A stretch of DNA of 64,000 bases from an uncultured Actinomycetes bacterium (GTDB taxonomy: Bacteria > Actinomycetota > Thermoleophilia > UBA2241). The position numbers and the translations under genes are program-made. Every line of letters begins with the position of its first letter. Position 1 is the stretch's first letter. The stretch covers positions 32,001 through 96,000 of the forward strand of contig CAVRZA010000002.1 in assembly GCA_963725665.1 (NCBI GenBank), in the 5' to 3' direction. The notes below the pieces were generated by a model. It worked only from the letters and a program-made list of their open reading frames with translations. It did no database searches and was not told where the DNA came from. This document shows positions 1 through 23,734 of this stretch, piece by piece.

Positions 1-10
1 TTCAGCTGTC

Positions 11-2651: not shown

Positions 2652-2847
2652 CCAAGTCTCCTGCCCCGATCTCGGCTAACGCGCGCCGGGAAGTCCTTCT
2701 CCTGTCGTCGTGGCACGCTGTAACGTGCCGGTCGGGGCCTCAACGAGACATGCGGATCCACCCGCGGACGCCGAAAGGACGTAGAGTCAGCACCTGGTTT
2801 TCGCCTGGGACAAGCACCTAGTTTCGTGTTTGACTCGACCTTAGGCA

Positions 2848-2865
2848 TTGTGGCACCCTTCACAA
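2848..2865. promoter_or_regulatory. Rex-like operator TTGTGGCACCCTTCACAA
   Basis: 18-bp TTGTG-N8-CACAA palindrome 128 nt upstream of the first cytochrome gene; fits the Rex consensus. Confidence 0.65.
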
Positions 2866-2991
2866 AGCGCGTTCGTTCGACAAGCCGTATTCGCGAGCCG
2901 CCTTCTTAGCGCGAGTGAGAACGAGCGTGCGCCGAGCCGTGGGAGACATGAGGGAATGAGTCCGCAGACCGGCCGTGGCCGGAGAGCAGCG

Positions 2992-4018
2992 AGATGAGCG
3001 CGCGCCTGCGCCGCTGGCTGCCCGTCTTCGCCGTCGTGGGCGCCGCCTTCCTGCTGGCCGCCGCCGTCTACGTCCCCGTACGGCTGACCTCCACGACCTC
3101 CTACTGTACCTCCTGCCACGAGATGAAGCTGGCCGGCGACAGCCTGAAGCGCTCCCCGCATCGCAACGTCGACTGCCTCTCGTGCCACGTCGACCCGGGA
3201 GTGGGCAACGCCATCACCTGGCGCCTGCAAGAGTCGAAGAACATCTGGGCGTCCTACCTCAACATGCCGGTCAACGAGGGCATGAGCAAGGAGGTGCACG
3301 TCCCCAGCAAGGCAGCCTGCACGCGCAGCGGCTGCCACGACCTGAGCTCGCTGGGCACGACCTTCGGCAACGTGAAGATGAACCACGCCCGGCACGTCGA
3401 GATGCGCGGGCTGACCTGCATCGATTGCCACAGTAGGGTCTCGCACGCCAAACAGGGAGAATCGACCGCCGTCTCCATGGCCTCCTGCTTCATGTGCCAC
3501 AACGGCGCCGCGGCCCCCAACCAGTGCAGCCTCTGCCACGTGACCGTGCCCGCTCAGGCCTCGCATCCACCCAACTACGTCCAGGACCACGGCCGCTTCG
3601 CGCTTCTCAACGAGGCTGAGTGCCTGCGCTGCCACCACGACAAGAAGGCCTTCTGCGACGCCTGCCACGCCAAGCCCACGCCGGCTCACTACTCCGGCAC
3701 CTGGCGCTACACCCACGGACCCACGGCGAGCGCCGACCGCGTCAGCTGTCTCGGCTGTCATGACTACCAGAGCTTCTGCGTCCAGTGCCACCAGGTCGAC
3801 CACCCGAGCGACTGGTCCTCGAGCCACGCAGCGGTGGCCACCAAGGGCGACGAGTCCTGCCTCGTCTGCCACCCGCGCAGCATGTGCAGCGATTGCCACC
3901 AGCAGCGGGGAGTCACCGCCCCGTGAGCCACCGCCGCCTGCTGGCCTTCGCCCTGGCCGCCGCTCTGGCGGCGCTCGCCGCCTGGGCGATGCTCCCCCGA
4001 GAGGCGTTCGCGCAGACG
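2992..4018 (+). repeat. copy 1 of ~1.03 kb near-identical duplicated segment (copy 2 at 7396-8423)
   Basis: Direct sequence comparison: near-identical except two divergent patches (~3396-3470 and ~3827-3853). Confidence 0.95.
2994..3926 (+). CDS. membrane-anchored 12-heme cytochrome c (NapC/NirT-like N-terminus)
   Basis: N-terminal TM; 11 CxxCH + 1 CX4CH (CTRSGCH). Confidence 0.92.
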   Translation: MSARLRRWLPVFAVVGAAFLLAAAVYVPVRLTSTTSYCTSCHEMKLAGDSLKRSPHRNVDCLSCHVDPGVGNAITWRLQESKNIWASYLNMPVNEGMSKEVHVPSKAACTRSGCHDLSSLGTTFGNVKMNHARHVEMRGLTCIDCHSRVSHAKQGESTAVSMASCFMCHNGAAAPNQCSLCHVTVPAQASHPPNYVQDHGRFALLNEAECLRCHHDKKAFCDACHAKPTPAHYSGTWRYTHGPTASADRVSCLGCHDYQSFCVQCHQVDHPSDWSSSHAAVATKGDESCLVCHPRSMCSDCHQQRGVTAP

Positions 4019-4795
4019 GCTCAGAATCAGAACCAGCGCTGCTTCGCCTGTCACGCGCAGAAGGGTCTGAGCACGGTAGAAGTGAACGGGGCGCTGCGCA
4101 GCGTGGAGGTGAACACCGACTACTGGGCGAGGTCGGTGCACTCGCGTCTCGACTGCACCGCCTGCCACGTCGGCTTCATTCCCGGCAAGCACACCGCCGC
4201 TCAGACCGAAGGCTGGTGGCAGCAGGCGGCGCTCAAGTCGTGCGCCAACTGCCACGCCAACGAGTTCGCCATGTACAAGGGCTCCTTCCACGGCAACTTG
4301 GTCATGAACGAGCAGTCCACGAACGCCCCGACCTGTGGTGACTGCCACGGATCCCACGCCATAGTGGCTACCAATGGCGCGGAGTTCCGAGGCTCTGTAC
4401 CCAGCATCTGCGGTCGCTGCCATCGTGAGCGCTCCTTCACGTACTCCGACACCTATCACGGGCAGGCTACCGAGCTCGGTGGTACTGCGGCCGCAGTGTG
4501 CACGGACTGCCACGGGAACCACAAGATCCTCCCGGCCTCGAACCCTCAGAGCCTCGTCTCTGACAAGCACATCGTGGCTACGTGCCGCAAGTGTCACCCA
4601 AAGGCCAACGCGCTTTTCGCCACCTACCTCGTACACGTCGATCGCGGCGACCCGAGGTCGTCGTTCATCATCTGGCTCTCCGACCTCGCCCACGCCGTTC
4701 TCATCGGCGTCCTCTTCGTGTTCGCCGGTTCGCACTCCCTGCTGTACTTCTATCGAGGACGACGGGAGGGGATCTATGGCCGCCGCACCCACTGA
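3923..4795 (+). CDS. 7-heme cytochrome c with signal peptide and C-terminal TM (CbcA-like)
   Basis: GTG start overlaps the upstream TGA (GTGA); signal peptide ends AFA; 7 CxxCH; C-terminal hydrophobic helix containing His. Confidence 0.9.
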   Translation: MSHRRLLAFALAAALAALAAWAMLPREAFAQTAQNQNQRCFACHAQKGLSTVEVNGALRSVEVNTDYWARSVHSRLDCTACHVGFIPGKHTAAQTEGWWQQAALKSCANCHANEFAMYKGSFHGNLVMNEQSTNAPTCGDCHGSHAIVATNGAEFRGSVPSICGRCHRERSFTYSDTYHGQATELGGTAAAVCTDCHGNHKILPASNPQSLVSDKHIVATCRKCHPKANALFATYLVHVDRGDPRSSFIIWLSDLAHAVLIGVLFVFAGSHSLLYFYRGRREGIYGRRTH

Positions 4796-5693
4796 CGTTC
4801 GGCCGACAAGGCAGCAGACGCACCCGTCGCGCACGGAGCAAGCGGTGGACGTCGGCAGCCTCGAGTACCGCCGCTTCGGGCCATTTCATCGCTGGGTGCA
4901 CTTCTTCGTGATGGCCAGCTTCACGGTCCTGGTCTTCACGGGCATGCCGCTCAAGTACAAGGATGCAGGGTGGGCCAGGACCGAGATGGACTTCATCGGC
5001 GGCGTGCAGGCGGCCGGGGTGTTCCACCGCTTTGCGGCGATGATCATGGTCTCGTGCGTTGTGTGCGAGCTGTTCTACTTCGCTCGCTATATCCTGGGCC
5101 GAAAGGGCCCTCTATGGGGTCCGGGTACGATGGTTCCCACGCGCAACGACTGGGCGGACATGAAGGCGATGTACCGCTGGTTCTTCGGCCTGGGACCCAA
5201 GCCTGAGGGATTCGACCGCTACACCTACTGGGAGAAGTTCGAGTTCTGGGCTGCCTCGGGCGGCGTGATGACGATGGTCGCCACCGGCTTCATGTTGTGG
5301 TTTCCTGTGCAGACCGCGCGGTTCCTGCCCGGCGTCTTCCTCAACTTGGCCATGGTGAACCATGCGGGCGGCGCCTTACTCGCCATGGGGTTCGTGTTCG
5401 TCTTCTGGCACGTCTTTCACGCCCACTTCAGGCCCGAGGTGTTCCCCTTCGACAAGGTGATGTTCGATGGCACGATGCCGGCTCCGGAGTATGCCGAAGA
5501 GCGGTCCGTGGAGTACCAGCGCCGCGTGCGCTCGGGCACGCTCAGCGAAGTGCTCGTCGAACCTGCTGGGCATACGCGCAAGGCGTTCGAGAACGTCGTT
5601 TGGTGGGCGATCACCCTCATTGCCATGGTCGTCTGGACCATCTTCGCTGTGTTCACGGCGTGGATCACGCTGCTTTGGATCGGCGTACTCTAG
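4776..5693 (+). CDS. di-heme cytochrome b subunit (FdnI/HydC/CbcB-like)
   Basis: ATG 4776 after GGAGGG; YRRF..FHRWVH, TGMPLKY, FDRYTYWEKF, His-bearing TMs, HFRPEVFPFD. Confidence 0.88.
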   Translation: MAAAPTDVRPTRQQTHPSRTEQAVDVGSLEYRRFGPFHRWVHFFVMASFTVLVFTGMPLKYKDAGWARTEMDFIGGVQAAGVFHRFAAMIMVSCVVCELFYFARYILGRKGPLWGPGTMVPTRNDWADMKAMYRWFFGLGPKPEGFDRYTYWEKFEFWAASGGVMTMVATGFMLWFPVQTARFLPGVFLNLAMVNHAGGALLAMGFVFVFWHVFHAHFRPEVFPFDKVMFDGTMPAPEYAEERSVEYQRRVRSGTLSEVLVEPAGHTRKAFENVVWWAITLIAMVVWTIFAVFTAWITLLWIGVL

Positions 5694-6110
5694 GAGCGCC
5701 GTGACCAAAGGCTTGCGCTCCGGCGTACGGCCCCGCCTTGCCCAGAGGGCCGGATCTCGATCCGAACCGCCCCGTGTAGCGCGAATGGGCACACGGCCCC
5801 GCCGTTGCGACCTGCGTCAGACGTGACTACCAGGTCTGTGGCACCCAGCGGTCTGCCAGAGTGTGACAAGCGCGCCGCTTCCTCACTGCGCTCGTACCGT
5901 CCGGCCTAGACCCCACTTATGTCCTGGGCGATGCTCTAGGAGGAGCGTCAGCCGCGGCTCTTCCGTGGGCTTGCGTCAGGTCTTGTCCCCCATCCCCATG
6001 GGGAATGCGAGAGAAACGACAGCCTGACCTCGACCCGTACTCCGCAGTGTCACCTCGCCGCTGTCATGATGCGACGATTTCCCTGCATATCGGGATGCAC
6101 GTGGACGGCG

Positions 6111-6176
6111 TACCCTAGAAGCTTCTGGGGTTACTACCCTAGACACTAGGGTGGTACTCCTGGGGTAAATTGGGGT
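6111..6176. promoter_or_regulatory. array of CCCTAG/CTGGGG palindromic sites (NarL/LuxR-type response-regulator-like)
   Basis: ACCCTAGAAG-CTTCTGGGGT, ACTACCCTAG-ACA-CTAGGGTGGT and TACTCCTGGGGTA in tandem; -10-like TACACT at 6233. Confidence 0.5.
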
Positions 6177-6284
6177 GCTGACGCACGTCAGAATGGGACG
6201 AGCAACCGAGTCTCACCGCGCCCCCCCATCGGTACACTAGTTATGTGACTTGAAGCACAAGCTAGCGCCAGAGAGGAGGCGACG

Positions 6285-6467
6285 ATGGGCATAGTCGAGT
6301 TGCTTGCATGGGTGGTGTTCGGTGCGATCTGGGTGGGTCTCGTCACGGTGGCGATTCTCGTCATCCTGATGGCGTTCGGGGTCACTCGGTCGGTCATCGC
6401 TGCTCGGGCTGCCGCGGTCACCAAGTCCTTGGTCCCAGCGCGGCATCAGAGCCCGCAGACGCGGTAG
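6285..6467 (+). CDS. small single-TM membrane protein (60 aa)
   Basis: Strong RBS GAGGAGG; hydrophobic N-terminal 30 aa. Confidence 0.7.
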   Translation: MGIVELLAWVVFGAIWVGLVTVAILVILMAFGVTRSVIAARAAAVTKSLVPARHQSPQTR

Positions 6468-6765
6468 TCGTCCTTGGCCTGCCCCCCCGGCCGCGGAAGC
6501 GTCTGGGATTCGCAGACCGGCCGAGTGAACATGTGTCTCGCCGGTCGGTGTCAGGGAAAGGGGCGGGGCGCCTTGGGACCGGCTCACGCCTTGGAGGGAG
6601 TCCTGCCGGCGCCCCGGGGACGGATGCTGTTGGCTGACTGAGCGTGTCCGCGCTCGGTCCTCAGCCGCCGCCCTTCTTCGAAGTCTCGCGAGTTCAAGCG
6701 CCACGCGTCGCTCGTCGCGGAGTCTCCGTCTTTCAGCTCGTTCTCTTCAGCCCATCCTGTGTGAG

Positions 6766-6897
6766 CTACTCGTCCGGCTCCTGCTGCTTGCGTCGCCCCG
6801 GAAGCACGATCTTCAAGAGGACCACTACCACGAAAGCGACGCCCGCTGCGAGTACCAAGCCGAACGGGATCCACGCCAGTGACTTGATGAGTTCCAC
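6766..6897 (-). CDS. small single-TM membrane protein (43 aa, MELIKSLAWIPFGLVLAAGVAFVVVVLLKIVLPGRRKQQEPDE), absent from ORF track
   Basis: GGAGGCGACG+GTG, the same RBS/spacer as the 6285 gene; shared LAW..FG motif; TAG at 6768-6766. Confidence 0.7.
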   Translation of the reverse strand: MELIKSLAWIPFGLVLAAGVAFVVVVLLKIVLPGRRKQQEPDE

Positions 6898-6993
6898 CGT
6901 CGCCTCCCCAGGGGTCAGCACCAGCCTTGATCTGACCTCGCCTCCGGTCGACCGCTGCCCCTACATCAGGAGCGTGCTCTCGTGATCACCGGA

Positions 6994-7011
6994 TTGAGGC
7001 ACCCTTCACAG
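6994..7011. promoter_or_regulatory. Rex-like operator TTGAGGCACCCTTCACAG
   Basis: 16/18 identical to the 2848 site; upstream of the minus-strand small gene. Confidence 0.5.
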
Positions 7012-7234
7012 GGAGCACTAGCCTATCGGCAAACGACCCTCCGGTAAAGACTGTACTCGTCTGGGGTGTTGTCCCATTCCCCGCTGACGTGACGATCTGT
7101 GGCTGGAGGTCCGTGCGTGCGACTCCGAGCGTTCGTCTCACCGGTACGCCCGCCGCTTTCGAGTCTATTCAGGTTCGGGTCGGGATCGAAGCAAAGCTTC
7201 GGCTCTGCGCGTCATAACGGAGGCTGGGGTGGGT

Positions 7235-7269
7235 TTGACACCGGACCCAGCCTGAGGCATTGTTCACAA
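7235..7269 (+). promoter_or_regulatory. sigmaA-like promoter (TTGACA-N17-CATTGT) overlapped by degenerate Rex-like site CTGAGGCATTGTTCACAA
   Basis: -35 at 7235-7240, -10 at 7258-7263, operator at 7252-7269; upstream of cytochrome copy 2. Confidence 0.55.
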
Positions 7270-7395
7270 GCGTTTTCGATTTCGTGTGTCGGCGCCGTCG
7301 TTACACCATTCTTCCTGTATCTTCGCCGGCGGCGCGCGAGGAGCCATCGGGGGATTGACGGATGAGTGGGCGGTACCCTACCCGGCGCGATGGGA

Positions 7396-8423
7396 AGATG
7401 AGCGCGCGCCTGCGCCGCTGGCTGCCCGTCTTCGCCGTCGTGGGCGCCGCCTTTCTGCTGGCCGCCGCCGTCTACGTCCCCGTACGGCTGACCTCCACGA
7501 CCTCCTACTGCACCTCCTGCCACGAGATGAAGCTGGCCGGCGACAGCCTGAAGCGCTCCCCGCATCGCAACGTCGACTGCCTCTCGTGCCACGTCGACCC
7601 GGGAGTGGGCAACGCCATCACCTGGCGCCTGCAGGAGTCGAAGAACATCTGGGCGTCCTACCTCAACATGCCGGTCAACGAGGGCATGAGCAAGGAGGTG
7701 CACGTCCCCAGCAAGGCGGCCTGCACGCGCAGCGGCTGCCACGACCTGAGCTCGCTGGGCACGACCTTCGGCAACGTGAAGATGAACCACGCCCGGCACG
7801 TGCAGATAGCCGGGCTGACCTGCATCGACTGTCACAAGACCACCGCCCATTCCGCCAAGGGCCAGTCCGCCGTCGGTCTCCATGGCCTCCTGCTTCATGT
7901 GCCACAACGGCGCCGCGGCCCCCAACCAGTGCAGCCTCTGCCACGTGACCGTGCCCGCTCAGGCCTCGCATCCACCCAACTACGTCCAGGACCACGGCCG
8001 CTTCGCGCTTCTCAACGAGGCTGAGTGCCTGCGCTGCCACCACGACAAGAAGGCCTTCTGCGACGCCTGCCACGCCAAGCCCACGCCGGCTCACTACTCC
8101 GGCACCTGGCGCTACACCCACGGACCCACGGCGAGCGCCGACCGCGTCAGCTGTCTCGGCTGTCATGACTACCAGAGCTTCTGCGTCCAGTGCCACCAGG
8201 TCGACCACCCGAGCGACTGGTCCTCGAGCCACGGTCAAGCCGCGACCGCAGCCCCGAAGTCCTGCCTCGTCTGCCACCCGCGCAGCATGTGCAGCGATTG
8301 CCACCAGCAGCGGGGAGTCACCGCCCCGTGAGCCACCGCCGCCTGCTGGCCTTCGCCCTGGCCGCCGCTCTGGCGGCGCTCGCCGCCTGGGCGATGCTCC
8401 CCCGAGAGGCGTTTGCGCAGACG
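7396..8423 (+). repeat. copy 2 of duplicated cytochrome segment
   Basis: Offset to copy 1 is 4404 at the start and 4405 at the end, consistent with a 1-nt insertion. Confidence 0.95.
7398..8331 (+). pseudogene. 12-heme cytochrome c, copy 2, +1 frameshift near 7865-7876 (real or assembly error)
   Basis: ORF 7362-8024 matches the copy 1 N-half and ORF 7882-8331 matches the C-half in another frame. Confidence 0.85.
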
Positions 8424-9194
8424 AACCAGGACAACGAACGCTGCCTTCGCTGTCACGCCGACATGTCGGGCACAGTCTCCGCCAACGGCACGCACGCGAG
8501 CCTCGCGGTGTCGCCCGAGACGTACGGCTCCTCGGTGCACTCGCTCCTCGACTGCACCAGTTGCCATCCCAACTTCACCGCGGGTGAGCATTCGGCGGCG
8601 CAGACCGCGGACTGGTGGCGCAAGGCGACTCTTGAATCCTGCGCCAACTGCCACTCCGGCCAGGCCGCGATGTACAAGGGCTCCTTCCACGGCAACCTGG
8701 TCATGAACCAGGGTGCGACCAACGTCCCTACCTGCGGAGGTTGCCACGGCTCACACGGCATCATGAGCACGACGACGAGGAAGTTCCGCGTCTCCATCCT
8801 AGACATGTGCGGTCGCTGTCACGGCGGGCGTGCTGCAAGCTATCTCGATGTGTATCACGGCAAGGCGTTCAAGCTAGGCGACGACTCAGCGGCTGTGTGC
8901 ACGGATTGCCACGGCGCGCATAGGATCCTGCCGGCCTCGAATCCCCAGAGCCTCGTCTCCAGTGAGCACATCGTAGCCACGTGCGCAAAGTGCCATCCCG
9001 GCGCGAATGCTCAGTTCGCCACCTACCTCGTGCACGTCGATCCAAGCTCACCGAAATCGTCCCTGACGGTGTGGCTGTTCTATGCCGCCTACTTCCTGCT
9101 GATCGCCGTCATCTTCACGTTCGGTGCAGTACACAGCGCGATGTACTTCTACAGGGGGCGAAAGGAGGGGATGTATAGCCGTGGCGCAGACTGA
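8328..9194 (+). CDS. 7-heme cytochrome c with C-terminal TM (CbcA-like), paralog 2
   Basis: GTGA overlap start; 7 CxxCH; signal peptide identical to paralog 1, mature part diverged. Confidence 0.9.
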   Translation: MSHRRLLAFALAAALAALAAWAMLPREAFAQTNQDNERCLRCHADMSGTVSANGTHASLAVSPETYGSSVHSLLDCTSCHPNFTAGEHSAAQTADWWRKATLESCANCHSGQAAMYKGSFHGNLVMNQGATNVPTCGGCHGSHGIMSTTTRKFRVSILDMCGRCHGGRAASYLDVYHGKAFKLGDDSAAVCTDCHGAHRILPASNPQSLVSSEHIVATCAKCHPGANAQFATYLVHVDPSSPKSSLTVWLFYAAYFLLIAVIFTFGAVHSAMYFYRGRKEGMYSRGAD

Positions 9195-10095
9195 GGTCGA
9201 AGTCGCTCGTGAAAGCGAGAAGCGACCCGTCGCTCTCACTAGAGAATCGACGGGCGTGCGTCTCGAGTACAAGCGGTTCAACGCCTTCCATCGCTGGATG
9301 CACTTCCTCACCATGACGAGCTTCACCGTACTCGTGTTCACCGGCATGCCGCTGAAGTACAAGGACGTCGGGTGGGCGCAGGCGACGATGAACCTCATCG
9401 GCGGTGTGGAGAGCGCAGCGATCCTGCATCGTCTCGCCGCTCTGGTGACATTCTTCGCATTCGGCTGCGAAGCCGTCTACATCGCGCTGTACATCGTCCT
9501 GCGCAGGGGCCCACTCTGGGGCAGCGCCACGATCATGTTCTGCCGCAAGGACCTGGCGGACGTGACGGCCATGTTCAAGTGGTTCTTCGGGCGCGGGCCG
9601 TACCCCAGGTTCGACCGGTTCACCTACTGGGAGAAGTTCGACTTCTGGTCGCTCGCCGGGGGCACCGTGATCATCGGCGGCACCGGCCTCATGATGTGGT
9701 TCCCCGTGCAGACGGCCAAACTGCTGCCCGGCGTCTTCCTCAACATCGCGCTGGTGATCCACTCGAACGAGGCACTCCTGGCCGTGGGGGTGATCTTCAT
9801 CTTCGTCCATCTGTTCAGCGCCCATCTCAAGCCGGGCTCGTTCCCTCTCGACAAGGTCATCTTCGACGGTTCGCTCCCCTATCGAGAGTACGTGCACGAG
9901 AGACCGCTGGAGTACGAACGGCGCATCAAGGAGGGTACCCTGGGGCAGGTGCTCGTTGAGTGCGACACGAGCACGACACGCGCGAAGGCGGCGATGGGTC
10001 TGTGGTACGTCATCACCATCATCGCGTTCGTGTGCGCCGCTGGTTTCGGCGTCTTCCTCGCGTGGGCGACGCTCACGTGGATAGGGCTGCTGTAA
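9181..10095 (+). CDS. di-heme cytochrome b subunit (CbcB-like), paralog 2
   Basis: GTG 9181 after GGAGGGG; FHRWMH, TGMPLKY, FDRFTYWEKFDFW, IHSNEALLA. Confidence 0.88.
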   Translation: MAQTEVEVARESEKRPVALTRESTGVRLEYKRFNAFHRWMHFLTMTSFTVLVFTGMPLKYKDVGWAQATMNLIGGVESAAILHRLAALVTFFAFGCEAVYIALYIVLRRGPLWGSATIMFCRKDLADVTAMFKWFFGRGPYPRFDRFTYWEKFDFWSLAGGTVIIGGTGLMMWFPVQTAKLLPGVFLNIALVIHSNEALLAVGVIFIFVHLFSAHLKPGSFPLDKVIFDGSLPYREYVHERPLEYERRIKEGTLGQVLVECDTSTTRAKAAMGLWYVITIIAFVCAAGFGVFLAWATLTWIGLL

Positions 10096-10169
10096 GCTAA
10101 TCGACACGGCGCGCGGCTGGGGACGTCGCCGAAGGGCGACGGCGATCCGCGCGCCGGCGGGAGGTTGAC

Positions 10170-11729
10170 ATGGGAGCCATGGGCGTGAGAGGCAAGAGGC
10201 CGGGACTACTGCGCTGGCTCGCTGTGGTCGCGCTCGCGTGCGCGGGCGCGGCGGCCGGGCTGGCGCTCGCCGCCGCGCCCGCGCACGCCTTCGACCTGTG
10301 GCAGCACGACGGCGCCAGCGACTGCGCGTTCTGCCACAGCGCCGGCACGCCCACGAACGCCGTCTGCACGCAGTGCCACCTCAGCTACAAGACGATAAGC
10401 AGCCTGACGTGCTGGGCATGCCATGCCCCGGGCCAGGATGTCAGTTTCTACCAGACGGCGGCTGGTTGTTCGTCCACATGTCATCTCTACGCCGGCGGCG
10501 GACCTGCCGACTACACGGTCCCCGTGTCACACGGAACGACGCCCCATCTGGGGGCTGACTTCGCGCCGTGCACTGCCTGCCACTCGGTCAGTGCCAGCGC
10601 TACCGACCCCGACGGCAGCCCTCATCACGACGGCGTCCCGCAAGGTGTGCCGACGTGCGAGGACTGTCACGACGGCACCTTCGCCTCGGCCAAGCAGCCT
10701 CACGACGGTCTCTCGTGCCAGACGTGTCACGACAACTCGATGTCGCGTCCGGCGCTGAGCAACGCCTACTGCCTGGCTTGCCACGAGAACGCGAGCGACC
10801 AGACGGGGGCGACCCAGATCGTCTTCACTGGCAGCCTGAACTGCTACGACGCGAGCTGCCACGGCGTCGACGTCCTCCATACCACGTCGCCGCAGATGAC
10901 CAAGACCTGCACCGACTGCCACGCGCCCCACTACCAGGGGCTCGGCACGTGCACGACCTGCCACAGCGATGTCGAGGGCTATCACCACGGGCAGGCTCAT
11001 CCGATCCCGCTCGACGACTGCACGGCGTGCCACAACGGCACCCTCGCCCCCAAGAAAGCGAACCACGACGGGGTGACGCCCACGTGCACAGCCTGCCACA
11101 CCGGCATGGACATCCCGCCGCAGCCCGCGACGTGCACGAAGTGCCATTCGTCGGCCACGTTCGGCGGCAAGACCTGCACGAGCTGTCACAGTCCCGGCGG
11201 CATCTTCAAGCAGGAGCAGGTGCACAACACGGCCCCCAACACGGATCCGTGCACCCGCTGCCACGCCGGGTATCAGAAGCACGCCGGCGCCGTGGCCTGC
11301 AGGACGTGCCACGCGAACGCGACCAAGTTCCACCACAAGGTCGTCTCGAGCCCCGGCTTCAAGAAGTGCACGTCTTGTCACTCCAAGAAGCACGCCGGCC
11401 GAAGCATAGCGGCCTCGAAGTGCTCTGTATGCCACAAGGGCAACCGCCCGACCTCCAAGCCGCGGGCGCAACACTCGGTGACGGTCAGCAAGAAGCGCAC
11501 GTGTTCCGCCTGCCACCGCCAGCGAGCGCACGCGTCGGCCGTGTCGAGTGTCACGTGCACTAACTGCCACGGCAGCGTCTTCCACCGCCGCATGCCCATC
11601 CCCACGAGCTCGGTCTGCTACAGGTGCCACGCGAGTGCGAGATCCCACGCTGTGGGCTTCCCGTGCACGGTCTGTCACCCCAACCTCGAGCACAATCCTC
11701 GCCCGAGCGCCGGGTTCGCGAGGCTCTGA
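10170..11729 (+). CDS. secreted 23-heme cytochrome c
   Basis: Sec signal ending AHA; 21 CxxCH + CX3CH + CX4CH; no C-terminal TM. Confidence 0.92.
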   Translation: MGAMGVRGKRPGLLRWLAVVALACAGAAAGLALAAAPAHAFDLWQHDGASDCAFCHSAGTPTNAVCTQCHLSYKTISSLTCWACHAPGQDVSFYQTAAGCSSTCHLYAGGGPADYTVPVSHGTTPHLGADFAPCTACHSVSASATDPDGSPHHDGVPQGVPTCEDCHDGTFASAKQPHDGLSCQTCHDNSMSRPALSNAYCLACHENASDQTGATQIVFTGSLNCYDASCHGVDVLHTTSPQMTKTCTDCHAPHYQGLGTCTTCHSDVEGYHHGQAHPIPLDDCTACHNGTLAPKKANHDGVTPTCTACHTGMDIPPQPATCTKCHSSATFGGKTCTSCHSPGGIFKQEQVHNTAPNTDPCTRCHAGYQKHAGAVACRTCHANATKFHHKVVSSPGFKKCTSCHSKKHAGRSIAASKCSVCHKGNRPTSKPRAQHSVTVSKKRTCSACHRQRAHASAVSSVTCTNCHGSVFHRRMPIPTSSVCYRCHASARSHAVGFPCTVCHPNLEHNPRPSAGFARL

Positions 11730-11731
11730 GC

Positions 11732-12766
11732 TTGCGCATCAGGGTCACCACACGCAAGGTGGTCGTCGCCGCCGTCGTTGTGACGGCGTTCCTCGTTCTC
11801 ACAGGCTTCGCGCTGATCTCGACATCGACCACGGCCTTCTGCGGCCTCTGTCACAACATGAAGCCTTCCGTGGACGCGTTGGAGCGCTCGGCGCACGGCG
11901 GCGTGAACTGCGAGCAGTGCCACAGCAAGCCGGGGCCGTTCTTCTTCCTCACCGCTAAGCTGGAGGCGCTGCAAGAGCCTGTGAAGCAGATCAGCGGCAA
12001 CTATGAGGAGCCCATTCTCGGAGTCGTGCAGAACGCCTCCTGTCGCCGCTGCCACACCGATGAGCAGCTGTTTCCGACGATCTCCCGGAACGGCATCAAC
12101 GTCAATCACAAGCACCTGATCGAGGCCGGCTACCAGTGCGTGACCTGCCACTCCACCGTGGCGCACCTCGACGCCGTGCCGGAGGGCTCGCGCGCCTACC
12201 CGACCATGGACCAGTGTCTCGTGTGCCACAACAACCACTACACGGCCGCCGACGGCACGGTAGCCTACAGCCGCTGCGACCTCTGCCACGTCAAGCCTGC
12301 GGCGGGCACAAAGCCCGCCAACCACGTCGCCGACTGGCTGCGCGTTCACGGCAGCGCCGGCGTCCTCTCGACCTGCACCGCCTGCCACCCGCCCGTCGAG
12401 GGCGCTGCGCCTCCGCCAGGCGGCTGGACATCGCACCTCGACTGCACGGGTTGTCACCGTGGGGTCCTCATGCCGCATCCCGAGGTCTGGCTGCACCTGC
12501 ACGGCGCCGCGTCGCTCAAGAAGGGCGAGCAGAGCTGCGCCCTCTGTCACGATACGAAGACCTACTGCGTCGGCTGCCACCGTGTGCCCCTGCCGCATCC
12601 GGCCGACTGGGTGTCCGCTCATCCCCGGGTCGCGCGCGCGGACGCCGCCACATGCATGAACTGTCACAGGATTGAGAACTGCAACGCTTGCCACGAGGCT
12701 CACCAGAAGGGCTCGCCGCCAGCTCACCGCTTCCTGACCGGGCAGATCACGGGGAACGGGACGTGA
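11732..12766 (+). CDS. membrane-anchored 12-heme cytochrome c (NapC/NirT-like N-terminus)
   Basis: Probable TTG start just after the upstream stop; N-terminal TM; 12 CxxCH; C-terminal PHPxxWxxxH repeats. Confidence 0.88.
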   Translation: MRIRVTTRKVVVAAVVVTAFLVLTGFALISTSTTAFCGLCHNMKPSVDALERSAHGGVNCEQCHSKPGPFFFLTAKLEALQEPVKQISGNYEEPILGVVQNASCRRCHTDEQLFPTISRNGINVNHKHLIEAGYQCVTCHSTVAHLDAVPEGSRAYPTMDQCLVCHNNHYTAADGTVAYSRCDLCHVKPAAGTKPANHVADWLRVHGSAGVLSTCTACHPPVEGAAPPPGGWTSHLDCTGCHRGVLMPHPEVWLHLHGAASLKKGEQSCALCHDTKTYCVGCHRVPLPHPADWVSAHPRVARADAATCMNCHRIENCNACHEAHQKGSPPAHRFLTGQITGNGT

Positions 12767-12767
12767 C

Positions 12768-13952
12768 GTGAGCGACCGTGAGCCAATCGACCGTCCGCCG
12801 TACCGGCCGCAGCCGGACCCGACGCCGGAGCCGCCCGTGCCTTCGCGCCCCAAGCGGCGCTCGCGCCACCTGCTCGATCTCGTCCTCTCCAAGGGCTGGA
12901 TCGTCGGCGTACTCCTCGGCGTCGTGGTCGTGTTGATCGTCATCGCGATCGGCTTTGCGGTCGTCTACAACAACGCTTTCTGCGACCGCTGCCACGTGAT
13001 CAAGAAGGAGGTCGCCTCGTTCAACGCCTCGAGCCATCATCGTCCCGGAGTCGTTTGCCAGGACTGCCACACCAAGCCGGGGGTGTTCAACTACTTCATC
13101 CGTAACCTGCAGAGCGCAACGCACATCGTCGAGTACATCTCAGGGCGCTACCAGCGGCCTATCGTCACCTACGTGGCGGTCGAGAACTGCGTCACCTGCC
13201 ACCCCAAGGACCAGATAGAGCGCGACATCGTGGTGGGCAACATCCGCGTCAACCACACGGGTCTGCGGGAGGGAGGCTACCAGTGCATGACGTGTCACTC
13301 GCAGGTCGTCCACGGCGACGTCACGCCGGTCGGCTCGCGGGCTCCGGAGAGCACCATGCACATCTGTTGGCGCTGCCACAACGGCGTCGACCAGCCGCAG
13401 CGTTGCTCCATCTGCCACATCAACGGTGTCCCTCCGGGAACTGCTGAAGTCAAGATCCCGGTGCACATGTCGCAGGGCGACTGTACCGGCTGTCACGACC
13501 AGAAGTTCTGCGCCAAGTGCCACCACGGGCTCACGATGCCGCATCCATCGGGTTGGCTGAAGGCTCATGGCCCGGTGGTCGTCCAGCGTGGCGCGGCGAT
13601 CTGCGCCGACTGTCACACCAAGAAGGACCCCAAGTTCTGCATCCGCTGCCACGGCCTGCCCATGCCGCACCCGCCTCGCTGGCTCGCGACGCATCCGGCC
13701 GTGGCGACGAGCAAGCCGGCCCTGTGCGTCAAGTGTCACGGGCAGGACTCGTGCGTGAGGTGTCACGGCGTCGTGCTTCCGCACTCGGCGTCCTTTATCG
13801 GCAGTCACTGGGTAGAGGCTGCTCGGAGCGGCACCGTGTGCGTGAAGTGCCACGGCAACACGTCAGGCGGGACGACGGGCGCCGCGAGCTGTTACGGCGG
13901 CGACTGCCACGCACCTACACCTTCCGGCACGCTGCCCAACGGCAGACCCTAG
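12768..13952 (+). CDS. membrane-anchored 14-heme cytochrome c (NapC/NirT-like N-terminus)
   Basis: TM after Pro-rich N-terminus; 13 CxxCH + CX4CH; paralogous to the upstream gene. Confidence 0.9.
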   Translation: MSDREPIDRPPYRPQPDPTPEPPVPSRPKRRSRHLLDLVLSKGWIVGVLLGVVVVLIVIAIGFAVVYNNAFCDRCHVIKKEVASFNASSHHRPGVVCQDCHTKPGVFNYFIRNLQSATHIVEYISGRYQRPIVTYVAVENCVTCHPKDQIERDIVVGNIRVNHTGLREGGYQCMTCHSQVVHGDVTPVGSRAPESTMHICWRCHNGVDQPQRCSICHINGVPPGTAEVKIPVHMSQGDCTGCHDQKFCAKCHHGLTMPHPSGWLKAHGPVVVQRGAAICADCHTKKDPKFCIRCHGLPMPHPPRWLATHPAVATSKPALCVKCHGQDSCVRCHGVVLPHSASFIGSHWVEAARSGTVCVKCHGNTSGGTTGAASCYGGDCHAPTPSGTLPNGRP

Positions 13953-14332
13953 CCGGTAGTGTCTCCGCCCGGCCCGGCCGGGCACGTGCTGTCTGGCCGA
14001 CGATCGCCGCTGCACGGCCTCCGCTGCCCTGATAGAGGCAGACCTCCTGCCTTGTTGAGACCCGGCTGCGACCCAGGTTGACGGAAGACACAATAGCCGC
14101 CGAACAGCGAGCGTTGAACCTGAGTCTGGAGGAGGCGGTGGGACGCGGACGTTACGTCTGCCGCTTCTTTTCTGCCCGAATGCGGTGAAGCCCTTCGTGG
14201 CGGGTGGCACGAAGCGCAAGCGCCCGCGCATATGGGTCGCGACGCCTTCTCTACACGCCTCGAGCCCGCTCTGCACCGCCCCCGTGAAAGCGAGCCGTCA
14301 ACAGGCAATCGAGCGAGCCTCCCTCTTCCCTG

Positions 14333-15589
14333 TCAAGGGGACTCAGTCGAAGGGAAGATCGGCAAGATCTTGGCGTAGAAGTAGAAGAGGACGAACGGGA
14401 ATATCAAGACACCGACAGCACCGACCAGGCCCTCCTTCAGGGTGTCCCAGCCGTGCGGCACTATCGGCAGTACGTAGTGCATGTACCCGGCAAAGGTGAG
14501 AGAGAAAGCCTGACCTCCGATAACGACGTTCCATCGCATCATGAACACGCCGAACAAGACGAGCACGACGCCGACGACGGCCCTTCTGATGGTCAACCGC
14601 GGAGCGAGAAACAGAATCAAGGGGACCAGATTACCAAGACCGTATTGCAGCAAGAATATGGAAGTGAACTCGTTGCCGTAGATGGTGCTCCGCAGGACAT
14701 CCCAGGACTTGACGGCCGTATACCCGCGGAACACGAGGTCGAGAAGCTCAAGACTGATGGCCAGAACCAAGAAGAGCAGGAGGTACCTGGAGGTGATCTT
14801 GATCACGCTAACCTCGACACCGCCGATCTCCTTGCGACGCTCGAGCGGATTCGTGGACGATCGCCTTCTGCGCACCAACAGTTTTCTGAGCTCCATGGTC
14901 ACGATATAGGTCAGCATGCAAAGGGCGATGCCCGACACAATCGCCGACATGATGAAGATGACCGGCATGAGTGGGGTCATCCAGAGAGCATTCGCCTTGA
15001 CCGACCCAAAGATGAAACCGGCGTAGCCGTGCAGGAACAGAGCGACGGGAATGCCTACGCCCGCGAGCAGTCGTATCGCGGTCTGATCTTGGCGCTGCGC
15101 CTTCTCGCTGAGGTCATATGAACCGAGGGTGAGTACGGTGAATATCGCGTACGAGAATCTCTCTCTCAGGGTCCTGTGGGTCTTGGCCCTGAGCGACATG
15201 GATCGCTCGACGAAGTGCCTGCGGTAGAGGAACCAGAGCTCAGAGGCCACGATCGCGAAATACGTCGAGAAGACGATGCCAAAAGCGGCGATCGCCGAAG
15301 TGAAATGGGGGGTCATCAGCACGTTGATGCCTCTGAGCGGATGTTGAAGATGCAGCAGAAGCGGCAAGAGCGCTCCAGGCAGCAGCGCAAAGGAGAACAC
15401 CAGGGCGAAGCGAGCTATGTCTTTGAGCTGCTTGATGCCGAACACATGGTAGAGAGATGACAGTACAAATGCTCCGGCGACAAGGCCGGTCATGAAGGGG
15501 TACATGACGATTTGGATGCTCCAGTAGATGTATTCGTTCGGGAGGACGAAAAGGTCCCTTAGCGTCCAGAGTTCGCCGTGTACTACCAT
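14333..15589 (-). CDS. NrfD/PsrC-family integral membrane quinol oxidoreductase subunit (CbcU-like)
   Basis: W..QIVMYPFMTGLVAGAF, HLQHPLR, MRWNVVIGGQ; 8 or more TMs. Confidence 0.9.
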   Translation of the reverse strand: MVVHGELWTLRDLFVLPNEYIYWSIQIVMYPFMTGLVAGAFVLSSLYHVFGIKQLKDIARFALVFSFALLPGALLPLLLHLQHPLRGINVLMTPHFTSAIAAFGIVFSTYFAIVASELWFLYRRHFVERSMSLRAKTHRTLRERFSYAIFTVLTLGSYDLSEKAQRQDQTAIRLLAGVGIPVALFLHGYAGFIFGSVKANALWMTPLMPVIFIMSAIVSGIALCMLTYIVTMELRKLLVRRRRSSTNPLERRKEIGGVEVSVIKITSRYLLLFLVLAISLELLDLVFRGYTAVKSWDVLRSTIYGNEFTSIFLLQYGLGNLVPLILFLAPRLTIRRAVVGVVLVLFGVFMMRWNVVIGGQAFSLTFAGYMHYVLPIVPHGWDTLKEGLVGAVGVLIFPFVLFYFYAKILPIFPSTESP

Positions 15590-15590
15590 A

Positions 15591-16439
15591 TCAGCGCACC
15601 TCCCAGTCCAGGCCAACATAGTAGACTTGAGGTTTGGTCCCAAATTCGCTCTTGAGGACCGCAACACGCTCGGTTAAGATGGTCTTTGTAACGGGATCGT
15701 ACGGGTCTTTGATATTGGCAATCTGCCGTGCGCCGAATGGGCAAGCCTGCACGCAGGCCGGAGGTAGCTCCTTGGTGATGCGGTGATAGCAGAAATTGCA
15801 TTTTTCCGCCGTGCGATAGATTGGGTTGAAGAACCTGGCTCCATAAGGGCATGCCATGATGCAGTATCCGCAGCCGATGCACCATGTCCTGTCAACGAGA
15901 ACGACACCGTCAGGGGCCTGGTAGGTGGCGCCGACCGGACAGACCTGCACACAGGGGGGATTGGCGCACTGGTTGCATAGCTTGGGGACGAAGAAGGCCT
16001 TTTCGATGTCTTCCTGCTTGATGTCCTGATACTCGCCTGCCTGGGTACCGGCCTTGCCGCCAATCTCGGCCGGTTCCCCCTGCTCGGCGCCCTGACCGAG
16101 GTAGATCCTGGGGTCGACGTAGCCGTCGCGGCCGCCCTTTGGAGAGTCGGCATGAAACCCGCCGTCCTTGGTCAGAACGTACCGCTCTACCCAGGTGCGC
16201 GTGACGTTGGCGTCGTAGGGGATCTCGTTCTCCAGTTTGCACGCCTTCACGCAAAAGCCGCACCCGACGCACTTGAAGGTATCGACCAGGAATACCCAGC
16301 GCACTGCCTTGTCTGTCTTTAGTGCTTGCATGCGTGCCGGGCTCAGGAGTTCGAAGGCCGCCGCCGGCACCATGAGTCCTCCTACGGCTAGGGCCGTCTT
16401 CTTCAGGAAGTCTCGTCTCGATACTCGTCTCGACATCAT
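15591..16439 (-). CDS. Tat-exported 4x[4Fe-4S] protein, NrfC/DmsB family (CbcT-like)
   Basis: SRRDFLK Tat motif; CVGCGFCVKAC, CNQCANPPCVQVCP, CIGCGYCIMACPY, KCNFC..PACVQACP. Confidence 0.92.
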   Translation of the reverse strand: MMSRRVSRRDFLKKTALAVGGLMVPAAAFELLSPARMQALKTDKAVRWVFLVDTFKCVGCGFCVKACKLENEIPYDANVTRTWVERYVLTKDGGFHADSPKGGRDGYVDPRIYLGQGAEQGEPAEIGGKAGTQAGEYQDIKQEDIEKAFFVPKLCNQCANPPCVQVCPVGATYQAPDGVVLVDRTWCIGCGYCIMACPYGARFFNPIYRTAEKCNFCYHRITKELPPACVQACPFGARQIANIKDPYDPVTKTILTERVAVLKSEFGTKPQVYYVGLDWEVR

Positions 16440-16456
16440 CTCGGGACCTCGCGAGG

Positions 16457-17209
16457 TCAAGGCTGGAGCCGCAAGAACTGCAGGGCCGGTTTGTGTGGGT
16501 CGTGGCACCTGACGCACGCATAGCCGAGGTTATGACGCGGCTTGTCGTGGCATTTCAGGCAGAGCGCCCGGCTCTTGTCGATGGCAAGCTTCGGGGGGTG
16601 AGATGGATGGTTCTGTGCGGGGCCGTGGCAGTCTTCGCACTGGATGACCTCGTGCGGCATCCCGTTCGTACTGTCGACTTGCTCCTGGTGACAGGTCCTG
16701 CACCACACCTTTCCCTGGCGATGGCGGGACGCCGTTGACTGCAGATAACGCAGGTCCGGCTGGTGCGGGAGGTGGCATCTGACACACTCAAAGCCGGGGT
16801 TGTGAGTCCTTGGGTCGATGCCCCTGATGACCGCCCTTGCGCTTGACGGGTATAGCAGTTTGGCGTGGCATCTCAGGCACAGCGCCCGGCTCCTGTCGAT
16901 AACAAGCTTCGGCGGGTCGGTTGGATGATTCCTTGCGGGGCCGTGGCAGTTCTCGCACTGGATGATGGCGTGCGGCATCTCGCTGATCTTGGCGACCTGC
17001 TCCTGATGGCAGGGCTGGCAGTAGTCCTTTCCCTGATACTTGACCGTGACCTTTTTCCAGTCCTCGATGTTTCCTGCGCGGTACCAGCCGTACGTGTAGC
17101 CACGTGCATGCACGCCGAAATCACTTGGCACATAGAGTTGTCGGAATATGACAAGAATGGCGACGATCCCGATGATGACCAGTAGTGGTCTCAGGACGTG
17201 ACTCCTCAC
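16457..17209 (-). CDS. membrane-anchored 8-heme cytochrome c made of two tetraheme repeats (CbcS-like)
   Basis: GTG after GGAGG; N-terminal TM; 8 CxxCH in two homologous halves. Confidence 0.88.
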   Translation of the reverse strand: MRSHVLRPLLVIIGIVAILVIFRQLYVPSDFGVHARGYTYGWYRAGNIEDWKKVTVKYQGKDYCQPCHQEQVAKISEMPHAIIQCENCHGPARNHPTDPPKLVIDRSRALCLRCHAKLLYPSSARAVIRGIDPRTHNPGFECVRCHLPHQPDLRYLQSTASRHRQGKVWCRTCHQEQVDSTNGMPHEVIQCEDCHGPAQNHPSHPPKLAIDKSRALCLKCHDKPRHNLGYACVRCHDPHKPALQFLRLQP

Positions 17210-17756
17210 GGGCCGAACCTCCGGGCCCATCCCCGCCGCTCGGGTAGCCGTGGACCGCACGTAGAGCGTTGGGGCCGTGGAGAGCGCGCAGCGATCGAGC
17301 GTCCGCCGGAAGAGGTCCTCGCGCTGCTCGCGGCGATAGGGCCGGTGGCCGTACTCACCAGGTGTGCCTGCAAATGCGTAGGGCCGACCTCGTGGTCAAC
17401 TGGACCTCATCTAGTGCGGAGAGGATTTGACAGGACAGAGTAAAGGGTGTCGCAGTTGCGCACAACCACCTGATTCCCTCACGTCGATGGGCACCGGTCG
17501 CGCCGTCTCGCTTCCTGCCTGCCGCGAGTGACTTGGATGATGAGGGGCTCCGTCAAGACCTGTGCGGTTGAAGCTCGATACGGCGGCCCTGTCGGACAGT
17601 GCCTGCTTCCTGCCCCCGCGGTCAGTTGCGCCGCCTCCGTCGGCGCCCGTTCCTTGCCCTTCCCCGCACCCTGGAGAAGTCCGTGAAGCGCGCGAGATGC
17701 GTAAGCGTGAGGTGCCGGCTGTGGAGCAGACCGACCGGGTGGTAGAGTAGGCAGCC

Positions 17757-22383: not shown

Positions 22384-22423
22384 CCGTGGCGCCTCGCGCC
22401 CAGTCGGTCGCGGGCGGGACGCC

Positions 22424-23464: not shown

Positions 23465-23734
23465 TCGCTGGCGCGCCGCGAGTCACAGGCGGCGGGCATG
23501 CGCCTCGCTCGCGCCGGCAAACCTCTCGCGAGCCTGCGCGACGGCGCTCCTGGCCAGTCGGACCGCAGCGCCGCCCTGTCCGGTCAATCTTGTGGCCGGC
23601 GTCCTTCGTCCATGGGCAGGCCCCCGCTCGTAGACGTTGCCTAGGTGCGCCTGCCGCGCCGCGATAGCATAGGTCGGCGAAGGTCGGCGGCCGCTCACAA
23701 CGGCTGTCCGTCAGCGGCTCGGCGCAGGGGGTGC

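Follow-up and report, generated by a model that had tools for sequence, protein, structure and literature searches.

A multihaem cytochrome cluster within a menaquinone-synthesis operon of an uncultured Thermoleophilia lineage, probably a route for respiratory electron export

How might a bacterium with a single membrane pass respiratory electrons to acceptors that cannot enter the cell? The question is raised by a 64,000-nt stretch of contig CAVRZA010000002.1 (the window, by which we mean this whole stretch), in which positions 2994-17230 hold eight multihaem cytochrome c genes, two cytochrome b genes and an NrfC/NrfD pair (G1 to G12 in order along the window; Table 1). A first-pass annotation had described these genes as an island for extracellular electron transfer (EET). 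Our analysis points to a respiratory electron-export apparatus of an uncultured Thermoleophilia lineage, encoded inside a menaquinone-synthesis operon and leading outward from menaquinol, a reading that we favour with modest confidence. The cluster probably wires the quinone pool of its source, an uncultured soil and sediment actinobacterium, to extracellular acceptors, and its core recurs in dozens of related species. To our knowledge, mechanistic understanding of multihaem extracellular respiration is limited to a few diderm models and one or two Firmicutes, and for Actinomycetota we know only of gene counts in metagenome bins.

A cytochrome core within menaquinone-synthesis genes

The eight cytochrome c genes G1, G2, G4, G5, G7, G8, G9 and G12 carry 12, 7, 12, 7, 23, 12, 14 and 8 haem-binding motifs, respectively, exactly the counts given in the first-pass annotation. 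The total is 95, of which 90 are canonical CXXCH and 83 lie in intact genes. The 90 CXXCH motifs fall within 2,759 cytochrome residues, against none in 13,709 residues from 34 genes examined elsewhere in the window, and chance is therefore excluded; counted in six frames, there were 93 motifs in the bins from 2 to 18 kb and four in the remainder of the window. Gene models were chosen from third-position G+C (guanine plus cytosine content), start-codon context and homology. The earlier span of 2848-17260 was right as to the cluster and slightly wide at its limits, position 2848 preceding the first start codon and 17260 being the start of the longest open reading frame (ORF) for G12. All eight cytochrome genes were located as claimed, one of them (G4) proving to be frameshifted, and the two cytochrome b genes, with PF01292 matches, and the NrfC/NrfD pair (14333-16439, minus strand) were found as well. 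A signal peptide or signal anchor is present in all of the cytochromes, and a twin-arginine translocation (Tat) signal in NrfC, which places the haems and other redox centres outside the cytoplasm. In Pfam and NCBIfam scans, neither a catalytic reductase nor a porin family turned up in the products of the cluster or of any flank examined (the short ORFs of the 5694-7397 spacer lay outside the scan), in agreement with the original claim that the cluster lacks both.

The host is identified by RpoB (54460-58179), which is 93% and 89% identical to proteins named "[Thermoleophilia bacterium]" by NCBI and thus bears out the actinobacterial host first proposed. Among the best 120 RpoB matches, six were named to an organism, five of them as Thermoleophilia and one as "Actinobacteria bacterium"; the closest match was 98% identical and further relatives were 84-87% identical. 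An uncultured Thermoleophilia order, UBA2241, has been defined, with genomes recovered from permafrost and lake hypolimnia according to the available part of that report (PMC7438021).

A profile of the two window cytochromes b and 20 database relatives was then used to scan a genome set of 185,579 species, with 10-kb flanks taken around each match. The scan returned 60 loci, 46 of actinobacterial type and 14 from Terriglobia or Fibrobacterales at 31-33% identity; the window's own genome is absent from this GTDB species set, in which its best cytochrome b match was 67% identical. The actinobacterial-type loci were labelled Thermoleophilia, Actinomycetes or Actinomycetota, save for one 5.5-kb contig filed under Acidobacteriota. 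Menaquinone flank genes were present in 44 of the 46, and in 39 there were also G1 and G8 homologues in the same order. The order shared with the window is a UbiD-type decarboxylase, a 95-residue ORF, UbiA/MqnP, a three-gene module (G1-type cytochrome, 7-haem cytochrome, cytochrome b), the G7-, G8- and G9-type cytochromes, UbiX, MenG/UbiE, polyprenyl synthase, MqnE and MqnC. Across the loci, identity to the window was 75-83% for the decarboxylase, 72-87% for MqnE and MqnC, 56-66% for cytochrome b, 41-62% for the NapC-like cytochromes and 26-46% for G7. In the window, UbiX, MenG, MqnE and MqnC all scored above their NCBIfam cut-offs (TIGR00421, TIGR01934, TIGR03700 and TIGR03699, respectively).

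In relatives, the operon is preceded upstream of the decarboxylase by genes for the haem b synthase AhbD (29 loci), HemL (31 loci) and the redox-sensing repressor Rex (32 loci), as for example in loci L025 (27-4612) and L001 (1-4470). The AhbD call (TIGR04545, 508 bits against a cut-off of 500) indicates the siroheme-dependent route. The window begins just downstream of the equivalent position.

In a tree of 75 cytochrome b sequences (quick maximum-likelihood search, midpoint root, branch support from the Shimodaira-Hasegawa-like approximate likelihood ratio test, SH-aLRT, only), the 61 Actinomycetota rows (SH-aLRT 100) stood apart from the 14 rows of Terriglobia and Fibrobacterales (100). The Actinomycetota rows formed two paralogue clades, one of 18 rows with G3 (support 95) and one of 43 rows with G6 (94), and the window proteins branched near the bases of their respective clades. 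Given this split and these positions, the duplication of the three-gene module looks old and both copies look vertically inherited, as far as such a tree can tell. We therefore rejected the notion that the core is a recently acquired island, on the strength of the synteny in 39-44 related loci and of the tree. The "island" of the first-pass annotation is for the most part a conserved, apparently vertically inherited part of the futalosine operon, into which only the octahaem-NrfCD module (G10-G12) has been inserted.

Two side observations concern these loci. The contig filed as part of an Acidobacteriota genome (L006, JBAWEQ010000217.1, 5.5 kb) has the actinobacterial gene order and a cytochrome b nested in the Thermoleophilia clade, and is probably misbinned. 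In the Terriglobia (L042-L054 and L060) and Fibrobacterales (L056) loci, an 11-haem domain and a cytochrome b at 31-33% identity form one protein of ~670-685 residues, flanked by further 7- to 10-haem cytochromes; a CbcL-like fused form is thus found in Acidobacteriota.

Table 1. Genes and other features of the cytochrome cluster and its flanks in the window
Feature	Positions	Strand	Observations
UbiD-family menaquinone biosynthesis decarboxylase	2..1444	+	truncated by the window start; TIGR03701 (mena_SCO4490) 616 bits, cut-off 496; 75-83% identity to first gene of related loci
Small conserved ORF, 95 residues	1466..1753	+	same position in related loci, 41-60% identity; no match in Pfam or NCBIfam
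UbiA/MqnP-type prenyltransferase	1764..2651	+	PF01040 2e-47; TIGR01475 263 bits, cut-off 181; MqnP models below their own cut-offs
G1, membrane-anchored NapC/NirT/NrfH-like cytochrome c, 310 residues	2994..3926	+	11 CXXCH and one CX4CH; PF03264 51 bits, cut-off 24.1; N-terminal hydrophobic helix; motif 1 CXXCH-x-M
G2, 7-haem cytochrome c, 290 residues	3923..4795	+	7 CXXCH; signal peptide; C-terminal transmembrane helix with conserved His; GTG start overlaps G1 stop
G3, cytochrome b (PF01292/FdnI-like), paralogue clade A	4776..5693	+	PF01292 29 bits, slightly below cut-off of 30.1; ribosome-binding site before start at 4776
Spacer, 1.7 kb	5694..7397		no homologue in related loci; two short hydrophobic ORFs
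G4, second copy of G1	7398..8331	+	12 motifs (3 CXXCH and CX4CH, then 8); split by +1 base into ORFs 7362-8024 and 7882-8331
G5, 7-haem cytochrome c, paralogue of G2	8328..9194	+	7 CXXCH; 64% identity to G2
G6, cytochrome b, paralogue clade B	9181..10095	+	PF01292 35 bits; 53% identical to G3
G7, secreted 23-haem cytochrome c, 519 residues	10170..11729	+	21 CXXCH, one CX3CH and one CX4CH; signal peptide
G8, membrane-anchored NapC/NrfH-like cytochrome c	11732..12766	+	12 CXXCH; PF03264 61.1 bits
G9, membrane-anchored NapC/NrfH-like cytochrome c	12768..13952	+	14 motifs (13 CXXCH and one CX4CH); PF03264 41.1 bits
G10, NrfD/PsrC-type integral membrane quinone-interacting subunit	14333..15589	-	PF03916 129 bits; nine hydrophobic segments
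G11, NrfC/DsrO/TtrB-like Fe-S protein	15591..16439	-	four Cys clusters; PF13247 82.8 bits; twin-arginine signal RRDFLK
G12, N-terminally anchored octahaem cytochrome c	16457..17230	-	8 CXXCH; internal duplication of tetrahaem unit
UbiX	17757..18392	+	synteny with related loci
MenG/UbiE methyltransferase	~18400..19227	+	synteny with related loci
Polyprenyl synthase	19224..20210	+	synteny with related loci
MqnE	20375..21502	+	synteny with related loci
MqnC	21986..23464	+	synteny with related loci

The spacer had no blastx or blastn match in the 60 loci and no Rfam family at gathering score. Two ORFs within it (6285-6467, plus strand, 60 residues; 6766-6921, minus strand, 51 residues) each encode one hydrophobic helix and have a purine-rich stretch before the start. 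Downstream of MqnC, positions 23645-29596 on the plus strand encode an FAD oxidase (pipecolate-oxidase-like), an HdrA2-like flavoprotein (832 bits, under the cut-off of 1100), an FrhB-like Fe-S protein and an AsrA/HydB-like Fe-S protein; the four may form a cytoplasmic electron-bifurcating or heterodisulfide-reductase-like module.

Membrane modules and a secreted cytochrome of variable length

The first-pass annotation had proposed parallel quinol:cytochrome modules of the kinds known from Geobacter, and proteins resembling all three kinds (NapC/NrfH-like, b-c and NrfCD) were recognised among the predicted products. G1, G8 and G9 consist of an NrfH/NapC-type tetrahaem head followed by tandem dihaem units of the form "CXXCH, short loop, CXXCH, PH, W, H", and all three score above the PF03264 cut-off (Table 1). 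Each has a single N-terminal hydrophobic helix (residues 5-23 in G1, 47-65 in G8 and 48-66 in G9, in the ORFs as first called). The best match of G1 to a solved structure in a PDB sequence search was NrfH (2j7a, expectation value (E) 1.8e-5). Counting CX3CH and CX4CH variants, and setting aside motif 1 of G1 and G8, each motif is kept in 55-58 of the 58 orthologues of G1, in 39-41 of 41 in the case of G8 and in 34-35 of 35 in that of G9. Across families of 35-58 orthologues, this conservation suggests that the haem motifs are under purifying selection.

The number of motifs is less constant. Orthologues of G1, G8 and G9 carry 11-16 haem motifs, those of G9 mostly 16, and distant relatives have up to 32. 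A search of 1.84 billion representative proteins gave 1,753 relatives of G9 at E <=1e-3 and 82 at E <=1e-30; among the best 150, 12 CXXCH motifs were commonest (55 of 150) and 20-32 were found in 35. The G9 family thus appears modular and extendable, and the spread of motif number fits a wire-like family.

In the window, G1 and G8 start with CXXCH-x-M, which we take to be the signature of NrfH haem 1. The first motif in most G1 and G8 orthologues is instead CXXCK (e.g. L025:8150-9103 and L008:16564-17598), CXXCH being found in only 20 of 58 G1-type and 4 of 41 G8-type sequences. CXXCK is the motif of the catalytic haem in the nitrite reductase NrfA, and we know of a lysine at that motif position only from this haem.

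These features also bear on a different role for the NapC-like and b-c modules, as quinol dehydrogenase hubs (of the CymA, NapC, NrfH or TorC-like kind) that serve soluble extracytoplasmic reductases encoded elsewhere rather than an extracellular conduit. Nitrite, nitrate, S- or N-oxides, sulfur compounds and metalloids would be candidate acceptors. This possibility gains from the matches of the N-terminal domains to NrfH, NapC and TorC models, from the CXXCK first motif in many G1 and G8 orthologues (the NrfA catalytic-haem motif noted above) and from the size of the window, 64 kb of a 593-kb contig. The equivalog models argue the other way: the scores of G1, G8 and G9 against the NrfH model TIGR03153 were 39.3, 46.5 and 58.3 bits, with a cut-off of 134.2, and those against TIGR02161 and TorC were likewise far below the cut-offs. 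No gene for a catalytic partner (NrfA, NapAB, TorA and the like) was found in the cluster or its flanks or within 10 kb of any of the 44 related loci as scanned, and the 8-12 extra haems per protein, together with a 23-haem secreted partner, are hard to square with a short hop to a soluble enzyme. We consider the hub role rather unlikely.

The second type of module pairs a 7-haem cytochrome with a cytochrome b (G2 with G3, and G5 with G6). The C-terminal helices of G2 and G5 lie at residues 248-266 and 250-268, and the histidine in this helix is conserved in every row among those listed from an alignment of 36 separate and 18 fused sequences. Those 18 relatives have the 7-haem part and the cytochrome b joined in one in-frame ORF of ~600-666 residues, and we take this fusion as good, if indirect, evidence that the two proteins form one membrane complex. 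Six histidines are invariant in 22 cytochrome b sequences. The cytochrome b family profile had no match in the PDB, and the NCBIfam models for Cbc proteins had no match in the cluster.

The G7 protein has a signal peptide and is without a membrane anchor or a sortase motif. Five N-terminal and eight C-terminal motifs are conserved in 37-39 of 39 orthologues, and each of the 10 central motifs occurs in just 1-13 of the 39, four of them in 12-13 and six in the window alone. With 23 motifs against 11-17 elsewhere, the window protein is the longest of its family. A conserved core of 13 haems and a centre that varies by 0-10 extra motifs between species is what might be expected of a spacer or wire.

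Clear homology of these proteins to known extracellular cytochromes and filaments (OcwA and OmcS/E/Z) did not emerge from PDB sequence searches, in which single proteins and family profiles alike gave weak or composition-biased matches only. The G7 profile matched 3ov0 (E 7.6e-8, with a bias as large as the score) and 7tfs (E 1.9e-6, covering the signal peptide and one haem motif), presumably the Geobacter dodecahaem GSU1996 and the OmcE filament subunit, respectively. In the ESM Atlas, G7 fell only among generic c7/c3 clusters, with scores <0.9, and RpoB drew no taxa there. The links to Mtr proteins were also weak (G12 to MtrA-like 6r2q_A, E 4.8e-5; MtrC, E ~0.01).

The NrfD module and the state of the assembly

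The octahaem-NrfC-NrfD module (G10-G12) is encoded on the other strand, between G9 and UbiX, where the gap measures 3,805 bp. None of the 34 related loci that span this junction has the module there, and in 31 of them the gap is <= ~120 bp. G+C is lower in the module (0.58, and 0.76 at third positions), the range across the window being 0.58-0.72. The G12 gene lies 17 nt upstream of the NrfC gene and contains a direct repeat (16537-16717 and 16855-17035, 80% identical at a spacing of 318 nt), from which we conclude that the octahaem protein arose by tandem duplication of a tetrahaem unit. G12 had no match to PF03264 or the NapC family and matched DmsE/MtrA-type decahaems weakly. The closest relative of NrfD (G10), at 92% identity, is on a contig that also carries the 98% RpoB match, and NrfD is 74-78% identical to Nitrospirae or Thermodesulfovibrionales proteins (5 of 6 organism-named matches) and to one Thermoleophilia protein. 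Because NrfD is similar to proteins from these groups alike, the module appears to circulate between phyla; it would occur elsewhere in related genomes and would have been placed at this site secondarily. A scan of positions 2500-18000 for promoters and terminators gave no excess over shuffled sequence (1 against 1.7 expected, and 6 against 7.3), and for this reason the convergent terminator-like hairpins at 14096-14161 are only suggestive.

G4 is the one broken gene of the cluster. At the DNA level it is 99-100% identical to G1 over ~1 kb, barring two short diverged patches, the first of which ends in one extra base (+1 near position 7876) that splits the gene. In 13 other two-module genomes, pairs of G1-type paralogues are 42-51% identical at the protein level, and in the window the partner proteins G2/G5 and G3/G6 are 64% and 53% identical; G1 and G4 have therefore been homogenised recently, by gene conversion or else by assembly or polishing. 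As for the frameshift, an indel error is just as probable as a true pseudogene, since a helicase gene elsewhere in the window (44294-46649) is frame-split too. At that site, on the minus strand, a DEAD/Helicase_C ORF (45429-46640) abuts an ORF with a WHD_HRQ1/MrfA zinc domain (44294-45427) in a different frame, and their stop-to-stop frames overlap. The pair has the look of a single MrfA/Hrq1-type helicase gene cut by a frameshift, and would be a second sign of indels in the assembly.

Could the cluster itself be partly decayed here, or partly an artefact, with G4, the G1/G4 pair and the foreign-looking NrfCD module the products of misassembled paralogues or decay? The frameshift in G4, the split helicase gene, the near-identity of G1 and G4 (at the DNA level, set against 42-51% at the protein level for the pairs in 13 other genomes) and the drop in G+C to 0.58 at 14-16 kb from 0.64-0.72 nearby would all fit. 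Yet 10 of the 11 remaining genes are intact, with conserved motifs and with orthologues present, and the gene order is the same in 39-44 independent assemblies. As for the module, an NrfD protein is on file from the same contig, and its 92% relative shares a contig with the 98% RpoB match. We regard this explanation as very improbable for the cluster.

Direction of electron flow, envelope and comparison with known systems

The six intact putative quinol-oxidising entry points set in a menaquinone operon, the secreted cytochrome of variable length and the lack of a catalytic enzyme or porin together make an outward path the most economical reading, and in relatives the neighbourhood of the entry points includes haem synthesis genes and Rex. 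Parallel membrane modules would take electrons from menaquinol by three kinds of entry. The first would be the three intact NapC/NrfH-type cytochromes (G1, G8 and G9), with G4 as a broken fourth, each anchored by a single N-terminal helix and lengthened to 12-14 haems by tandem dihaem units. The second would be the two CbcBA-like b-c modules, in which a 7-haem cytochrome would be seated on cytochrome b by way of its C-terminal helix, and the third would be the NrfD-NrfC-octahaem module, a separate arrival at this site. The haem chains would project outward from the single membrane and pass electrons to the secreted G7, which might relay them through the wall to acceptors unable to enter the cell, such as Fe(III) or Mn(IV) minerals, humic substances or partner cells. 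That quinol is oxidised, that the proteins make contact, that electrons cross the wall and flow outward, and which acceptors they reach are all read from gene content and arrangement, and the complete quinol-to-surface conduit of the first-pass annotation is likewise an inference. Solved multihaem wires measure roughly 1 nm per haem. One might speculate that 14 and 23 haems, if arranged linearly, could between them bridge a wall some tens of nanometres thick.

Several points weigh against an outward conduit. Sequence does not reveal which way the electrons flow. Elsewhere among bacteria, proteins of the NapC/CymA type supply soluble periplasmic reductases, and such reductases could be encoded elsewhere in this genome. 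No cytochrome c maturation genes were seen in the window in the Pfam and NCBIfam scans. The searches of the PDB gave no link beyond weak, composition-biased matches to OcwA, MtrC, OmcS or OmcZ, and AlphaFold2 models built from family alignments (G9: predicted local distance difference test score (pLDDT) 51.6, predicted template modelling score (pTM) 0.26; G7: pLDDT 48.3, pTM 0.28) were too poor for fold comparison. G4 is frameshifted, possibly by an assembly or polishing artefact, and its 99-100% DNA identity with G1 is out of line with the 64% and 53% (protein) of the partner genes. Finally, one preprint calls Thermoleophilia gram-negative, citing an old staining report in the portion available (10.1101/2022.03.26.485925).

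The monoderm status of the host is drawn from literature on the phylum: as set out in the available part of one survey, the actinobacterial flagellar clusters, Thermoleophilia included, all are without L/P-ring genes, and the phylum is treated as monoderm except for the mycolate group (PMC10746217). The window also encodes, at 40079-41956 on the plus strand, a protein with VanW, PG_binding_4 and G5 domains. This domain set is typical of Gram-positive walls, and it lends mild support to a monoderm envelope without being a test of it.

The same hardware might also run inward or in both directions, with electrons from Fe(II), reduced humics, a cathode-like mineral or a syntrophic partner reducing menaquinone, or might serve as an electron buffer. 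Multihaem chains and proteins of the NapC type can in principle work either way, the sequence gives no sign of which applies, and the data on organisation and conservation fit equally. Uphill flow from Fe(II) or humics to menaquinone would, however, need an input of energy, and no component for this was seen in the cluster. The nearest architectural matches, CbcBA and Cbc4, are moreover described as quinol oxidases for extracellular acceptors in the available parts of the respective reports (bioRxiv 10.1101/2021.04.15.440034 and bioRxiv 10.1101/2025.04.14.648717). An inward or bidirectional role is in our judgement unlikely, and export from menaquinol is the reading we retain.

How far is such a system new? 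The claim that EET occurs here in a lineage not known for it was too strong. EET-marker proteins such as "CbcL homologues" are reported from 8 of 19 Thermoleophilia metagenome-assembled genomes (MAGs) of boreal lakes in the available part of one preprint (10.1101/2022.03.26.485925). Multihaem-rich Coriobacteriales MAGs are likewise in print: an anode-enriched example has 37 multihaem cytochromes, and the accessible text of that report refers to one previous case from a neutrophilic actinobacterium (PMC7399161). As survey data, then, the presence of multihaem EET genes in anaerobic Actinomycetota is already published. Full-text literature searches found no description of this locus, and, so far as those searches reach, nothing in print covers the conserved placement inside the mqn operon, the three long NapC-type cytochromes, the CbcBA-like modules in their split and fused forms or the secreted cytochrome of variable length.

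A wider claim would be that an order-level uncultured Thermoleophilia lineage has a dedicated, vertically inherited, wall-crossing conduit, tied to menaquinone and haem b synthesis and to Rex, as its main respiratory outlet; we advance this tentatively, as possible but on the doubtful side. If it were true, widespread actinobacteria would be an overlooked guild of Fe(III) or humic reducers or of partners in direct interspecies electron transfer, with a conduit architecture unrelated to the Thermincola system and built from long NapC-type "rooted wires" and a length-variable secreted cytochrome. A defined conserved set (3-4 long NapC-type cytochromes, split or fused CbcBA-like modules and a variable secreted cytochrome), physically tied to quinone and haem synthesis in ~44 species-level genomes, makes respiratory electron export by monoderm actinobacteria directly testable. 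When soil, peat and sediment data are searched for such organisms, the set is also a marker superior to generic counts of cytochromes.

Among known systems, the b-c modules most resemble CbcBA of Geobacter, described as a seven-haem cytochrome whose C-terminal helix gives a histidine to a neighbouring dihaem cytochrome b and as a quinol oxidase for extracellular acceptors (bioRxiv 10.1101/2021.04.15.440034, in the portion available). Compared by this published description, the modules share with CbcBA/CbcL of Geobacter sulfurreducens a 7-haem cytochrome c with a histidine-bearing C-terminal helix beside a putative cytochrome b of the PF01292/FdnI kind (G6 above and G3 just below the Pfam cut-off), fused forms among relatives and, by analogy, a proposed role in oxidising menaquinol for extracellular acceptors. 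They differ in having no adjacent BccR or sigma-54 regulator, in being always preceded by a NapC-like 11-12-haem gene and set within the mqn operon, and in belonging to an actinobacterial host without an outer-membrane porin-cytochrome partner.

The G10-G12 module is comparable to Geobacter Cbc4 (CbcS-CbcT-CbcU), which the available part of its report describes as a membrane-anchored c-type cytochrome, a four-cluster Fe-S protein and an integral membrane subunit, acting as a quinol oxidase for extracellular acceptors (bioRxiv 10.1101/2025.04.14.648717). As in that description, an NrfD-family membrane subunit, a Tat-exported four-cluster Fe-S subunit and a c-type cytochrome are encoded in one operon. 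In Cbc4 the cytochrome, CbcS, is a tetrahaem of NapC/NirT type, whereas G12 is an octahaem derived from a tetrahaem duplication, with no PF03264 match.

G1, G8 and G9 share with the tetrahaem quinol dehydrogenases of the NapC/NirT/NrfH/CymA family one N-terminal helix followed by a tetrahaem domain. They depart from NapC, NrfH and CymA in their 12-14 haems, reached by C-terminal tandem dihaem units, in the lack of an adjacent catalytic partner, in missing the equivalog cut-offs and, for many G1 and G8 orthologues, in the CXXCK first motif. Geobacter ImcH is a longer member of the same family.

Unlike the Mtr/Pcc porin-cytochrome conduits of diderms, the cluster has no gene for an outer-membrane beta-barrel. 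From the chain of Thermincola potens it differs in phylum, in gene organisation and in its coupling to quinone synthesis genes, and there is no detectable homology to the OcwA system, the sole match to OcwA (6i5b) being that of G2 at E 0.016. The concept is nonetheless alike: in Thermincola potens, too, multihaem cytochromes of the membrane, wall and surface carry respiratory electrons across a monoderm envelope.

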